A stretch of DNA of 64,000 bases from Tepidisphaeraceae bacterium. GTDB lineage: Bacteria; Planctomycetota; Phycisphaerae; Tepidisphaerales; Tepidisphaeraceae. The position numbers were made by a program, and so were the translations under genes. Within the stretch, counting starts at the first letter, position 1. Each line of letters begins with the position of its first letter. Positions 18,450 through 57,960 of the stretch are shown here, in pieces. Location of the stretch: assembly GCA_035998445.1 (NCBI GenBank), contig DASYHQ010000050.1, positions 89,647 through 153,646 on the forward strand. Direction: 5' to 3'. The notes beneath the pieces are model-generated. The model did not search any database. It was given only the letters and a program-made list of their open reading frames with translations, and was not told where the DNA came from.

Positions 18450-18575
18450 GACGGCACTCCTACTCCTCTCCCGGTACGCCGGGAGAGGCTGGGTGAGGGT
18501 GATTTCCGTTCTTCCGACAGTCGTCAGCAGTCCGAAATCACCCTCACCCAGCCTCTCCCATGAATACATGGGAGA
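18450..18575. repeat. Family-B composite palindrome
   Basis: ctctcccggtacgccgggagag, ggctgggtgagggtgatttc ... gaaatcaccctcacccagcc, ctctcccatgaatacatgggagag. Confidence 0.8.
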
Positions 18576-18591: not shown

Positions 18592-19242
18592 CTATTCCTT
18601 CTCATCCGCATCGGTCGCGCGGGGCGCAACGCTCGGGGCGCGGTCGAGGATGCGGTCGGCACAGCCGTATTCGACGGCCTCTTCTGCAAACAGCCACTTG
18701 TTGCGATCGAAGTCGCGGTGGATCTGCTCGGTGGTCTTGCCGGTGTAGTCGCTCATCATCTTGTACAGGCGGTCGCGCAGGCGAAGCATGTGGGCGGCCT
18801 CGATGCCGAGGTCGGTCGCCGGGCCCTGCATCACGCCACCGATGAGCGGTTGGTGCAGCATGACCTGGCTGTTCTTCAACACCGACCGCTTGCCCTTTGT
18901 GCCGGCGGCCAGCAACACCGAGCCCATGCTGGCGGCCATGCCGATGCAGGTGGTGGCGACGTCGCAGCGGAGGAACTGCATCGTGTCGACGATGCCGAAG
19001 CCCGCGCTCACGCTGCCACCGGGGCTGTTGACGTAGAGCTGGATGTCGGTCTTGGGGTCATCGTTGGACAGGAACAGCATCTGCGCGATGACGGCGTTGG
19101 CCGAGTCGTCGGTCACGGGGCCGTTCATCATGATGATGCGGTCCTTCAGCAGGCGCGAGTAGATGTCGTAGGCGCGCTCGCCGCGACCGGACTTTTCGAT
19201 GACCATCGGGATCAGGGTGTTCTGCGTCATAATCTCTCTCAA
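18592..19242 (-). CDS. clpP: ATP-dependent Clp protease proteolytic subunit
   Basis: Full ClpP fold with Ser ([10 protein letters not shown]), His (MLHQPLIGG) and Asp. Confidence 0.95.
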
Positions 19243-19927: not shown

Positions 19928-20713
19928 TCACTTGGGCTTCGACCCATCCACCGCGGCCTCGGCGACCTCGGCCGGGGCGTCCTCGCCGAGGATCTCGTCG
20001 GCCAGGCCGTACTTAACGGCGGCCTTGGCGTCGAAGAAGCGATCGCGCTCGCTGTCCTCCTGAATGCGCTCGTTCGTCTGGCCCGTGCACTTGGCCAGGA
20101 TCTTGATCAGCACTTCCTTGGTCTTCAGGATTTCCTCGGCCTGAATCTCGATGTCGGCCGCCTGGCCGTACACGCCACCGAACGGCTGGTGGATCATGAC
20201 CTTGGCGTTGGGCAGGATGTAGCGCTTGCCCTTCTTGCCGGCGGCGAACACGATCGCGCCACCGCTCTCGGCCCGGCCGATGCAGTAGGTGGCGATGTCG
20301 CAGGTCAGGAACTTCATGATGTCGTACATCGCCAGCGTGTCGTCGACGACGCCGCCAGGGCTGTTGATGTAGAAGTTGATGTCCTGGTCGCGCTTCACGC
20401 TCTGCAGGTACAGCATCTGCATGATGACGCGCGATGCCGTCACGTGGTTGATCTCGCCGACGAGGAAGACCACTCGGTTCTCGAGCAGCATTTCCTCGAG
20501 CGTCATCTCGCGGTAGCGGTTCATGCCCCCACCCGGAGGCCCGGGCATGGCGGCAGGCATGCAGATCGGCCCACGACCGGGAATGATCTGCGGGTCGCCG
20601 TTGCGCGCCATGTTGTCCATCGCCTCGGCGGTGCGCACCGACGTGCGGCTGACGGCCTCGGCGACACGGCCGATCGCCCGCGGATCAATGTTTCTAAAGT
20701 CCAGATTCGACAT
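19928..20713 (-). CDS. clpP: ATP-dependent Clp protease proteolytic subunit, second paralog
   Basis: NSPGGVVDDT (Ser), MIHQPFGG (His) and a C-terminal acidic tail. The start at MSNLDF has a GAGGA RBS. Confidence 0.9.
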   Translation of the reverse strand: MSNLDFRNIDPRAIGRVAEAVSRTSVRTAEAMDNMARNGDPQIIPGRGPICMPAAMPGPPGGGMNRYREMTLEEMLLENRVVFLVGEINHVTASRVIMQMLYLQSVKRDQDINFYINSPGGVVDDTLAMYDIMKFLTCDIATYCIGRAESGGAIVFAAGKKGKRYILPNAKVMIHQPFGGVYGQAADIEIQAEEILKTKEVLIKILAKCTGQTNERIQEDSERDRFFDAKAAVKYGLADEILGEDAPAEVAEAAVDGSKPK

Positions 20714-20854
20714 GCGTTGTCCTCGTTTCTGCTCGGTCACTCTATGTCGGTCGATACTAGCCCTGCCTGTAGGGACCGTCAATCAAAGGCCGGACGCGCG
20801 GGTGGCGCGATAATGTTTTCGAAGTGGGAAGTGAGAAAGGCGAAGGGAGGGACT

Positions 20855-21120
20855 CCGGCCCCTCTCCCGGTACGCCGGGGGAGGCTGGGTGGGGGTAAAT
20901 TATGAAGCAAATGACCAATGCCCAAACCCGAATGACCAATGAAATCCCAAGGATCAATTCCCAATAGTGGCATTCTCTTTAATGGGGATTGGTGATCGGG
21001 CATTCAATGGTCATTCGGGTTTGGGCATTGGTCATTGCGTTCCGCGCTGCTCGTCATTCGAAATCACCCCCACCCAGCCTCCCCCGGTGTACCGGGAGAG
21101 GGGCCAGAGGGCCGCGCCCA
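20855..21120. repeat. Family-B/D composite palindromic element
   Basis: ctctcccggtacgccgggggagg ... aatgaccaatg / cattggtcatt arms ... ctcccccggtgtaccgggagagg. Confidence 0.8.
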
Positions 21121-21192
21121 ATCCACTGCCTTTACTTCCCACTTCCCCCTTCCATTGACCCGCCCGCGTTCCCCGCTACACTACTACTGAAC

Positions 21193-21249
21193 ATGAAGAC
21201 CTTCACCGCGACCGCCGGCATCATTATTACCCCAGGACAACTCGGGTAG
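21193..21249 (+). CDS. Putative leader peptide MKTFTATAGIIITPGQLG (Thr/Ile-rich) of a cimA attenuator
   Basis: An 18-codon ORF 114 nt upstream of cimA. 4 Thr and 4 Ile in 18 residues, including an I-I-I-T run. An intrinsic terminator follows. Confidence 0.5.
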   Translation: MKTFTATAGIIITPGQLG

Positions 21250-21286
21250 GGCCAGCGTGCGTGGATGTTGCAAGATGAGTTGACGG

Positions 21287-21311
21287 CCCTGCCCCTGCGG
21301 CAGGGTTTTTT
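21287..21311 (+). terminator. Rho-independent terminator/attenuator (ccctgcc-cctgc-ggcaggg + TTTTTT) between the leader peptide and cimA
   Basis: 7-bp GC stem followed by ttttttcgttt. It sits 50 nt before the cimA start codon. Confidence 0.6.
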
Positions 21312-21362
21312 CGTTTGGCGGGTACGCTTCATCCCCCAAACCTCAAAGGCGAGAGAGACGAC

Positions 21363-22970
21363 ATGAGCACACGACGCATCGAGATCTACGACACCACCCT
21401 TCGCGACGGCACCCAGGGCGAGGGGTTTAACTTGTCGCTGCAGGACAAGCTGCTGATCGCCCAGAAGCTGGACGACCTCGGCGTCGACTACATCGAAGGT
21501 GGCTTCCCGCTCTCCAACCCGAAGGATGCTGCCTTCTTCCGCGACGTGCGCGAGCTGAAGCTGAAGCACGCCCAGGTGTCGGCGTTCGGCATGACCCGCC
21601 GGCGGGGCATCAAGGCGGAGGACGACCCCGGCATGAAGTCGCTGCTGGACGCGCAGACGCCGGTCGTGACCATCGTCGGCAAGACCAGCGACTTCCACGT
21701 GAAGGCCGTGCTGAATGTCACGCTGGAAGAGAACTTGGCGATGATCGCCGACACGGTGAAGCTGATGACCACCGCCGGCCGAAAGGTCGTCTACGACGCC
21801 GAGCACTTCTTCGACACGTACCGCAGCAACCCGGACTACGCGCTGCAGACCCTCCGCGCCGCCCAAGAGGCCGGGGCGACCGTGCTCTGCCTGTGCGACA
21901 CGAACGGTGGCAGCATGCCGGAGTTTGTCGAGTCGACCGTCGCGGCCGTCCGCAAGGCGACGGGCGCCATCATCGGCATCCACCCGCACAACGACTCCGC
22001 CGTCGCCGTCGCCAACGGGCTCGCGGGGGTGCGCGGCGGCGCCGATCATGGTCAGGGGACCATCAATGGTGTCGGTGAGCGCTGCGGCAACATGGATTTG
22101 CTGCCGTTCATCGCCAACTTGCGCCTGAAGTACCAGTTGGACTGCTTGGCCGGTGATTCACTAAAGCACCTGACCGAGGTCAGCCGTTTCGTCTACGAGA
22201 CCGCCAACATGAACCTTATCAGTGGCCAGCCCTACGTCGGCAGCAGCGCGTTCGCCCACAAGGGTGGCATGCACGTGCACGCGGTGCAGAAAGACTCCAG
22301 CACTTACGAACACGTGTCGCCCGAATCCGTCGGCAACACCCGCAAGATCCTGATCAGCGAGATGAGCGGTGTGTCGAACATCATGGCGTCGGCGGGGAAG
22401 AAGTTCGACCTGGAGAACGACAAGGTCACGCTGCGCAAGGTGCTTGATCGGGTGCAAAATCTGGAAAACGAAGGCTTCCAGTTCGAGGCCGCCGAGGCGA
22501 GTTTCGAGTTGATGCTGCGCAAGGAGATCGGCCGGTACCAGTCGTTCTTCACGCTGGACCACTATCGGGTGAGCGTGCAACGCTACGACGTTGACTCGGC
22601 GGTCTCGGAAGCCACGGTGAAGCTAAAGGTCAGCGAGATCACCGAGCACCACGTCGCCGAGGGTGACGGGCCCGTGAACGCGCTGGACGAAGCCCTCCGC
22701 CGGGCCCTAGCGTTCCACTTGCCCCAGATCGCCAAGGTTCGACTGACGGACTACAAGGTGCGCGTCATCAACTCCAAGGACGAGACCGCTGCCAAGGTGC
22801 GCGTGATCGTCGAGTGCAAGCGCGAGCGCGCCGACGGCACGCGCGAGTTGTTCGGTACGATCGGCGTCAGCACCAATGTGATCGACGCGAGTTGGCAGGC
22901 GCTCGTAGATGCCTATGAGTACCACCTGATCCACGCCAAAGAAGAGGCAAATATGCCCGTAACAGCCTGA
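21363..22970 (+). CDS. cimA: (R)-citramalate synthase
   Basis: An LeuA/CimA DRE-TIM fold with the DTTLRDGTQ variant seen in characterised CimA (my recollection). ~535 aa with a C-terminal regulatory domain. Confidence 0.75.
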   Translation: MSTRRIEIYDTTLRDGTQGEGFNLSLQDKLLIAQKLDDLGVDYIEGGFPLSNPKDAAFFRDVRELKLKHAQVSAFGMTRRRGIKAEDDPGMKSLLDAQTPVVTIVGKTSDFHVKAVLNVTLEENLAMIADTVKLMTTAGRKVVYDAEHFFDTYRSNPDYALQTLRAAQEAGATVLCLCDTNGGSMPEFVESTVAAVRKATGAIIGIHPHNDSAVAVANGLAGVRGGADHGQGTINGVGERCGNMDLLPFIANLRLKYQLDCLAGDSLKHLTEVSRFVYETANMNLISGQPYVGSSAFAHKGGMHVHAVQKDSSTYEHVSPESVGNTRKILISEMSGVSNIMASAGKKFDLENDKVTLRKVLDRVQNLENEGFQFEAAEASFELMLRKEIGRYQSFFTLDHYRVSVQRYDVDSAVSEATVKLKVSEITEHHVAEGDGPVNALDEALRRALAFHLPQIAKVRLTDYKVRVINSKDETAAKVRVIVECKRERADGTRELFGTIGVSTNVIDASWQALVDAYEYHLIHAKEEANMPVTA

Positions 22971-55249: not shown

Positions 55250-55385
55250 CGCTCCGGCCCCTCTCCCGGTATTCCGGGGGAGGCTGAGAGGGGGTGAGTT
55301 TGCCTTAATAGATTCGCCAGCCGTTCGAAGCACCCCCACCCTAACCCTCCCCCGGAGTACCGGGAGAGGGAACCAGACGAACTCA
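55250..55385. repeat. Family-B palindromic pair
   Basis: ctctcccggtattccgggggagg and ccctcccccggagtaccgggagagg. Confidence 0.75.
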
Positions 55386-57834: not shown

Positions 57835-57960
57835 GGCACCTCTCCCCTTACTCATGGGAGAGGCTGGGTGAGGGTGATTTCGTTCCAAATGAGAGGCGCC
57901 AGCAGTTCGAAATCACCCTCACCTAGCCTCTCCCGGAGTACCGGGAGAGGGACCGGAGGA
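57835..57960. repeat. Family-B composite palindrome
   Basis: ctctccccttactcatgggagagg, ctgggtgagggtgatttcg ... cgaaatcaccctcacctag, ctctcccggagtaccgggagagg. Confidence 0.8.

Follow-up and report, generated by a model that had tools for sequence, protein, structure and literature searches.

How is entry into the pyruvate route to isoleucine (Ile) regulated in Planctomycetota? The question is raised by a locus in a 64,000-nucleotide stretch of DNA from a Tepidisphaeraceae bacterium (hereafter the window, meaning the whole 64-kb stretch that we analyzed), in which cimA, encoding the first committed enzyme of this route, is preceded on the same strand by a short open reading frame (ORF) with a run of Ile codons, and by a hairpin that leads into a T-tract. 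An initial annotation, made from this one stretch, had read the arrangement as a ribosome-stalling attenuator that senses threonine (Thr) and Ile. Combining RNA folding with a comparison of cimA loci from many genomes, we conclude, with a probability of roughly 80%, that the region holds a putative ribosome-mediated (leader-peptide) transcription attenuator, which would set cimA expression by the supply of charged tRNA-Ile. A classic ribosome-stalling attenuator is very probable here because the same layout recurs across the phylum.

A leader ORF with an Ile run and an intrinsic terminator precede cimA

The downstream gene had been called cimA by the initial annotation, and this call is sound, since the 535-residue product scores above the cutoff of the citramalate synthase equivalog TIGR00977 in NCBIfam (657.6 bits versus 450) and far below the cutoffs of all LeuA (2-isopropylmalate synthase) models. 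Because CimA opens the pyruvate route to Ile, Ile codons are those expected to be regulatory in a leader at this position. The leader ORF encodes MKTFTATAGIIITPGQLG in 18 codons on the + strand, from an ATG at 21193 to a TAG stop at 21247-21249, and contains three Ile codons, clustered as the run ATC ATT ATT, such that codons for the end product of the pathway (Ile-Ile-Ile) stand together ahead of cimA. It also contains four Thr codons, all of them ACC, at codon positions 3, 5, 7 and 13. The length of the ORF and its four Thr were reported correctly in the initial annotation; its count of four Ile was one too many. The pattern ATHATHATH occurs once in the two strands of the window taken together, at the leader run, with 1.39 occurrences expected by chance, and the evidence from the window by itself is thus no more than suggestive; it is the comparative data across cimA loci, described below, that set the leader apart from chance.

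Downstream of the leader, the hairpin GGCCCTGCC-CCTGC-GGCAGGGTT (21285-21307) starts 35 nt past the leader stop, with its ccctgcc core at 37 nt, the distance that had originally been given for it. The end of the hairpin runs into TTTTTT (21306-21311), followed by CGTTT, and the site is recognized as terminator-like in a consensus scan. Folded alone, the hairpin has a free energy of -16.0 kcal/mol (z -2.9). An intrinsic terminator is thus found between the leader ORF and cimA, whose ATG at 21363 lies 113 nt after the leader stop and 51 nt after the U-tract. This + strand terminator does not serve an upstream gene, because the upstream neighbors are two clpP paralogues on the minus strand (18592-19242 and 19928-20782). 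In a crude scan of the whole window, it was the single clean intrinsic terminator on the + strand, which suggests that this genome may use intrinsic termination sparingly, with the cimA leader terminator as an exception. The same crude scan gave 11 matches on the minus strand, all long irregular hairpins with mostly short T-runs.

Upstream of the leader, a consensus scan detected a sigma-70-like site, TTGACC-16-TACACT, with its end 10 nt ahead of the leader ATG; the interval from the leader terminator to cimA gave nothing resembling a promoter. Transcription would accordingly start near 21189-21191, only 2-4 nt before the ATG. In the window and in seven related loci (L002, L003, L011, L082, L083, L087 and L101), the gap from the end of a TTGACC-16/17-TAnnAT box to the leader ATG is 7-11 nt, and in this clade the leader ORF would therefore seem to lie on a leaderless or nearly leaderless transcript, an arrangement that fits the absence of a Shine-Dalgarno sequence. 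In other clades the 5' untranslated region of the leader, as predicted from sequence, measures 24-60 nt. The locus thus presents a short, putatively translated ORF downstream of a promoter-like site.

The leader stop codon is embedded in an antiterminator

The initial annotation had proposed a search for mutually exclusive antiterminator and terminator pairings, and such a pair was found. The strand GGGUAGGGCC (21244-21253) pairs with GGCCCUGCCC (21285-21294), which covers the terminator's 5' arm. The hairpin that they form has a free energy of -23.9 kcal/mol (z -2.0), compared with -16.0 kcal/mol for the terminator. The antiterminator strand begins 17 nt after the last Ile codon, and the UAG stop of the leader is embedded in it. 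We refer to the antiterminator strand as segment 2 and to the two terminator arms as segments 3 and 4, where segment 3 is common to both structures; segment 1, which contains the Ile codons and the UACCC that follows them, is the 5' strand of a predicted hairpin with segment 2 (the 1:2 hairpin, or anti-antiterminator).

We modeled the effect of a translating ribosome by removing a 30-nt footprint, the generally accepted size, from pairing and refolding the leader. With the A site at the third Ile codon, the minimum-energy fold of the full-length leader turned to the antiterminator, while with the A site at the stop codon the terminator was retained. In these masked folds, then, stalling of the ribosome at Ile is predicted to keep the antiterminator accessible and its arrival at the stop to mask it, which is the geometry that an attenuator needs.

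The same layout recurs upstream of cimA across Planctomycetota

With the CimA protein as query, species-representative genomes yielded 80 loci and metagenomes a further 80; the closest CimA proteins belong to Tepidisphaeraceae and Tepidisphaerales metagenome-assembled genomes (MAGs), at 71-75% amino-acid identity, which places the window in a planctomycete of the class Phycisphaerae. A locus was scored as having an Ile-run ORF when the 400 nt upstream of cimA held an ORF no longer than 50 codons in which some window of 6 codons contained 3 or more Ile, and the counts were compared with dinucleotide-preserving shuffles. Among loci labelled Planctomycetota, 53% (24/45) had such an ORF on the forward strand; the reverse strand gave 6, and the shuffles predict 1.9. 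No enrichment was seen in the 36 loci from other phyla, with 9 forward, 6 reverse and 5.4 expected. The conservation of Ile codons in orthologous leaders, which the initial annotation had named as a check, was therefore borne out. Metagenomes supplied further examples, and 42 leaders were collected. Ile accounts for 25% of their last 12 codons, a figure that is partly circular since the set was picked for Ile runs; the enrichment of 24/45 is the unbiased test for the same reason.

Apart from the Ile run and the C-terminal residues, the leader peptides are unlike one another, both among the nearest relatives (MTLRSMISAIIITPGHPG in L101, MNNAAAIAALIITAQQCG in L082, MSAGNFIIGRIIIAPENLG in L002 and MQTSRIASALIIIARELRG in L003) and at greater distance (MSVSYTDYVSSIIIICKITGSS in Gimesia, L017; MNPNSTHFPQVIIIPHCD in Pirellula, L053; and MIIADIIVVIIPHGG in L063). 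The Ile codons favor a kind that is rare in cimA itself: ATT outnumbers ATC by 98 to 53 in the leaders, compared with 191 ATT and 785 ATC in the adjacent cimA genes (odds ratio 7.6, p 2e-28). In the window, cimA has 0 ATT and 22 ATC, and the leader 2 ATT and 1 ATC. ATT and ATC should be read by the same tRNA, and our guess is that slower wobble reading of ATT causes the bias. Attenuation leaders are known to show a bias in the choice of their regulatory codons (PMC1183508).

The RNA elements are conserved along with the codons. A hairpin with a T-tract follows the leader in 39 of the 42 collected leaders. For each of these we searched the stretch from 75 nt before the leader stop to the hairpin for the best RNA duplex with the terminator 5' arm, and in 92% (36/39) the best partner overlapped the leader stop codon (+/-3 nt), usually starting 9-24 nt after the last Ile codon. 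This placement holds across clades with terminator arms of differing sequence (CCCUGCC, CCUCAGG, CCCUGG, CCCCGGGA and CCCUCGG). Furthermore, the stop region prefers the arm of its own locus, at -18.7 kcal/mol versus -13.7 kcal/mol with the arms of other loci, and none of 20,000 permutations did as well. Aligning 16 sequences of the GGGUAGGGC type, we found 91.9% pairing in the antiterminator helix and compensatory changes at 2 of its pairs; shifting the partner by 1-3 columns lowered the figure to 33-57%. The terminator helix is 92.5% paired, with compensatory changes at 4 pairs. Both hairpins are thus conserved and covary, conservation of the hairpin having been among the checks that the initial annotation named, and the antiterminator and the terminator exclude each other. 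Of the 42 leaders, 27 end in TAG; this preference, like the C-terminal Gly codons, follows from the RNA constraint GGG-UAG-GGC.

A covariance model built from the 16-sequence alignment with the antiterminator structure was searched against 919 kb. All matches at E < 0.05 lay on the + strand immediately upstream of cimA, once in the window, and they included loci outside the training set (L140, L115, L108 and L091 at E < 0.003; L023, L092 and L004 at E 0.016-0.05).

Some loci vary this plan or resemble it. Gemmataceae/Isosphaeraceae-type leaders (L008, L020, L024 and L025) carry an extra conserved GCGCAGGGAGUGCG, encoding AQGVR (QEVR in L085 and L100), within a longer leader ORF with Val runs; this stretch could form an extra hairpin, or its CAGGG could mimic the terminator 3' arm. 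An Ile-run ORF with a strong terminator also occurs at L051:2790-2995, labelled Thermodesulfobacteriota, and at L160:1000-1180, on an unlabelled metagenome contig. The two peptides, of which that of L051 begins MGFISNIIIIINAAG, are hydrophobic and about 40 residues long, and could be Ile leaders that arose independently, or small membrane proteins. Many apparent matches in Verrucomicrobia and other phyla stem from the C-terminus of a preceding gene, which ends ...MISTSDISISCIIKKKF... and may be an aspartokinase ACT domain.

Evidence against the attenuator, and other readings of the locus

Several observations weigh against the interpretation as an attenuator. The unmasked equilibrium fold of the leader consists of the 1:2 hairpin and the terminator, and the whole leader is not unusually stable (z -1.4); the switch is visible only in masked or co-transcriptional sub-folds, and the whole-leader equilibrium fold is uninformative. 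The 1:2 hairpin itself, in which 21206-21235 pairs with 21241-21264, is suggested in the window only (-25.3 kcal/mol, z -1.7, in a fold of 21200-21266). Across 36 leaders it is no more stable than shuffles (mean z -0.46), and RNAalifold on the seven closest sequences reduces it to a 5-bp core, UUACC/GGUAG, with no compensatory changes, although in 26 of the 36 segment 2 has half or more of its bases paired to the Ile codons or their surroundings. A conserved 1:2 hairpin is thus not supported across the family, and because the hairpin is weakly supported the default state in the absence of translation is uncertain. The leader ATG has no Shine-Dalgarno sequence, such that translation would have to depend on the leaderless or nearly leaderless initiation suggested by the promoter position, and the regulatory codons number just three. 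Around half of the Planctomycetota loci miss the strict Ile criterion; in some of these only two Ile codons are present, or another gene adjoins on the upstream side. Finally, the binomial p of ~6e-20 for the overlap with the stop codon (36/39 versus a uniform null of 0.23) overstates the significance, as the loci are phylogenetically related.

The z of only -1.4 for the whole-leader fold would also suit a chance co-occurrence of a short ORF with a terminator-like hairpin that has no regulatory role, as would the single ATHATHATH against 1.39 expected. We give this reading almost no credence, since the architecture recurs upstream of cimA across Planctomycetota orders, far above the shuffle and reverse-strand controls, and since the stop-codon segment and the terminator arm covary. 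Joint sensing of Thr and Ile, proposed initially and analogous to the E. coli thr leader, is very unlikely on other grounds. It has in its favor the four ACC codons of the window's peptide and the Thr codon that often follows the Ile run in other leaders. Thr, however, accounts for 6.3% of the last 12 codons of the 42 leaders, about twice the 2.6-3.0% of the off-frames and modest against the 25% of Ile, and it lacks positional conservation: the Thr at leader positions 3, 5 and 7 have no counterpart in L101, L082, L002 and L003, and the ACC after the Ile run becomes GCC (Ala) in L002 and L003 with the C-rich RNA kept, which points to a constraint on the RNA and not on the coding. The CimA route, moreover, bypasses threonine. 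We rejected Thr as a regulatory codon and conclude that, as judged from its codons, the leader is an Ile leader and not a Thr/Ile leader; in this respect the initial annotation did not stand.

The terminator/antiterminator switch could also be real and its sensor a protein, an uncharged tRNA or a small ligand, as in TRAP, T-box and riboswitch systems, with the ORF incidental. An alternative pairing does not by itself tell what selects the fold, and the missing Shine-Dalgarno sequence would suit such a sensor. We nevertheless regard it as very unlikely. No Rfam family, T-box included, matched anywhere in the window at gathering score, and at E <= 10 the region 20700-21500 gave no leader, T-box or riboswitch family, with only P9 and anti-hemB appearing below threshold. 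Upstream of segment 2, as far as the promoter, what is conserved is a run of Ile codons that stays in frame while its third positions vary between T and C; the ORF that holds the run has its stop inside the antiterminator, and the enrichment given above was counted on runs within ORFs. The rest of the leader is unconserved in sequence and structure, leaving no room for an aptamer. Slightly less probable again is an independent small gene, encoding a micropeptide or a small RNA (sRNA) with its own terminator, next to a cimA expressed from a separate downstream promoter. The sub-threshold match to the sRNA P9 (26 bits versus a gathering score of 43, E 0.0024) lends this little support, and in L001 the distance of the leader from cimA is larger by about 260 nt, with an insertion in the interval. 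Such a gene is at odds with the mere 51 nt between U-tract and cimA ATG, which hold no promoter-like site, with a peptide unconserved outside the Ile run and the RNA-constrained C-terminus, and with the restriction of the element, across the phylum, to sites preceding cimA; a stand-alone gene would have no use for an antiterminator in covariation with its terminator. Each of these four readings is contradicted by at least one of in-frame Ile conservation, the stop embedded in the antiterminator, exclusive linkage to cimA, and covariation. The ribosome-stalling attenuator of the initial annotation is supported by the antiterminator, the conserved Ile codons and the covarying hairpin.

A model for Ile-dependent expression of cimA

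In the attenuator model that we favor (Table 1), transcription would begin a few nucleotides before the leader ATG, and a ribosome would be on the 18-codon leader while RNA polymerase nears the terminator. When Ile is plentiful, the ribosome would reach the UAG and cover GGGUAGGGCC, as the stop codon lies inside that segment; GGCCCUGCC would then pair with GGCAGGGUU, and transcription would terminate at the U-tract, before cimA. When charged tRNA-Ile is scarce, the ribosome would stall at ATC ATT ATT with its footprint ending about 5 nt short of 21244, leaving GGGUAGGGCC to pair with GGCCCUGCCC as soon as the latter is made; no terminator would form, and the polymerase would continue into cimA. 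In the absence of translation the 1:2 hairpin (21206-21264), the weakly supported step of the model, would probably sequester segment 2 and lead to termination. The response to Ile in vivo that this model predicts is thus a rise of cimA transcription upon Ile limitation.

Table 1. Elements of the putative cimA attenuator in the window
Feature	Coordinates	Strand	Basis
Putative sigma-70-like promoter, TTGACC-16-TACACT	21155..21182	+	Consensus scan; equivalents in relatives
Leader ORF, 18 codons, MKTFTATAGIIITPGQLG, TAG stop	21193..21249	+	Analogous short Ile-run ORFs upstream of cimA
Segment 1, 5' strand of the predicted 1:2 hairpin (anti-antiterminator), Ile codons and following UACCC	21206..21235	+	Fold of 21200-21266
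Regulatory codons ATC ATT ATT, proposed ribosome stall site	21220..21228	+	Ile run; codon preference for ATT
Segment 2, antiterminator strand GGGUAGGGCC, contains the leader stop UAG	21244..21253	+	Pairing with 21285-21294; conserved placement
Segment 3, terminator 5' arm GGCCCUGCC, common to antiterminator and terminator	21285..21293	+	Folds; alignment
Segment 4, terminator 3' arm GGCAGGGUU (21299-21307) and U-tract (21306-21311, then CGTTT)	21299..21311	+	Folds; alignment
cimA, (R)-citramalate synthase, 535 amino acids, regulated gene	21363..22970	+	TIGR00977, 657.6 bits

Other features of the region

A second small ORF of 33 codons, MLQDELTALPLRQGFFVWRVRFIPQTSKARETT, extends across the terminator (21265-21366) and ends in an ATGA that overlaps the cimA start. 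Some relatives have similar +1-frame ORFs, with conservation of neither start nor sequence, and we rejected the ORF as a functional one; it is probably due to chance. A scan of the window for short ORFs with amino-acid runs before terminators found no other leader-peptide candidates, a weak negative in that its long-ORF filter also missed the cimA leader. No further branched-chain amino acid genes were found among the neighbors of cimA, which on its 3' side are an Amidase_2-domain gene and a Ser/Thr kinase. The two clpP genes upstream stand in tandem. The second ClpP ORF (19928-20782, minus strand) is listed with 284 residues, of which about 90 precede the ClpP domain, and its true start is probably further downstream.

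Between clpP and the leader promoter lies a nested palindromic element of ~257 bp (20853-21109), with outer arms at 20853-20901 and 21061-21109 (92% complementary) and inner arms at 20910-20966 and 20980-21036 (84%). Its end motif CCGGGGGAGGCTGGGTGGGGGT is found five times in the window against an expectation of none, and a related motif occurs at 18479-18500 (+), 55274-55295 (+) and 57915-57936 (-); the element looks like a dispersed repeat resembling repetitive extragenic palindromic (REP) sequences or miniature inverted-repeat transposable elements (MITEs). In the closest genome, a Tepidisphaeraceae MAG, ~250 nt separate the leader terminator from cimA (L001:2737-2985), and this stretch holds a different palindromic repeat, cacagagggcacagagaag with a complementary copy. 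The attenuator of this genome stands well away from cimA, an insertion having entered the same intergenic region.

Scope of the family and its implications

To our knowledge, very few cis-regulatory elements have been described in Planctomycetota. A literature search found no report of cimA leader peptides or of attenuators in Planctomycetota, although its coverage was incomplete and the result is absence of evidence only; together with the lack of an Rfam match, it agrees with the initial statement that such attenuators are essentially undescribed in this phylum. The search likewise returned no report on the control of the citramalate route to Ile in any bacterium. On balance, though by no wide measure, we favor the view that the elements found here form one family of Ile-only leader-peptide attenuators, spread over the phylum and not described before, which control the way into the citramalate pathway in Phycisphaerae, Pirellulales, Planctomycetales and the Gemmatales- and Isosphaerales-type lineages.

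If so, cimA would gain a concrete and testable regulatory mechanism, and the use of leaderless or nearly leaderless initiation for a regulatory ORF would be indicated in the window's clade. Since the regulatory codons are Ile, the leaders also provide an independent functional hint that the LeuA-like genes behind them serve the synthesis of isoleucine and not of leucine. The mechanism needs a ribosome close behind RNA polymerase, and conservation of the element would thus be indirect, genomic evidence for functional transcription-translation coupling throughout the phylum, a point that has been debated for it, Gemmataceae included. Claims of a membrane-enclosed nucleoid in this family are contested. 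One such claim has been published (PMC3440768). In practical terms, the ~40 or more natural leader variants with different terminator arms are well suited to mutational and covariation studies, and the element would offer a compact Ile-responsive part for planctomycete genetic tools.

Comparison with known attenuators

We know of no previous case in which cimA is controlled by attenuation. The classical enterobacterial leader-peptide attenuators are those of trp, his, leu, thr, ilvGMEDA and ilvBN, together with that of pheA (PMC1183508). The cimA element is like them in having a short leader ORF with clustered end-product codons and an intrinsic terminator before the first structural gene, in an antiterminator that shares a strand with the terminator and that a ribosome finishing the peptide would block, and in biased codon choice at the regulatory positions. 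It differs in using Ile alone as its regulatory codons, in contrast to the mixture of Ile, Val and Leu in ilvGMEDA and of Thr and Ile in thr; in that there are just three such codons, on a leader ORF that is apparently (nearly) leaderless; and in that a conserved 1:2 hairpin is not demonstrable. By their covariance models, the element belongs to none of the Rfam leader families (Thr_leader, Leu_leader, His_leader, Trp_leader and others) nor to the T-box family, and it has no sequence similarity to the leader families.

Outside Proteobacteria, ilvB leader peptides with terminators are known in the actinobacteria Corynebacterium, Mycobacterium and Streptomyces (PMC1262725, PMC10272879), where they were predicted by comparative genomics (PMC1262725). 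The two cases share this route of prediction, a high-GC phylum, and an upstream ORF rich in branched-chain codons that is followed by a terminator before a branched-chain biosynthesis gene; they differ in the gene (cimA, not ilvB), the codon content and the phylum, and no sequence relationship was detected. In Geobacter and Pelobacter, leuA carries a Leu-specific T-box leader (PMC2494555, PMC2700814), and an Ile T-box on Geobacter cimA was considered and rejected, the T-box there being this Leu-specific one. Like the proposed cimA element, the leuA T-box is a terminator/antiterminator switch at the RNA level before a synthase of the LeuA/CimA family and reports the charging of a branched-chain tRNA; unlike it, the T-box senses uncharged tRNA directly and without a leader peptide, is specific for Leu and sits on leuA.

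Taken together, the cimA element displays every computable defining feature of leader-peptide attenuators except a conserved 1:2 hairpin. The mechanism is a textbook one; what is new is the target gene, the restriction to Ile codons, the spread across the phylum, the bias towards ATT and the near-leaderless layout, and the advance is one of scope and not of principle.

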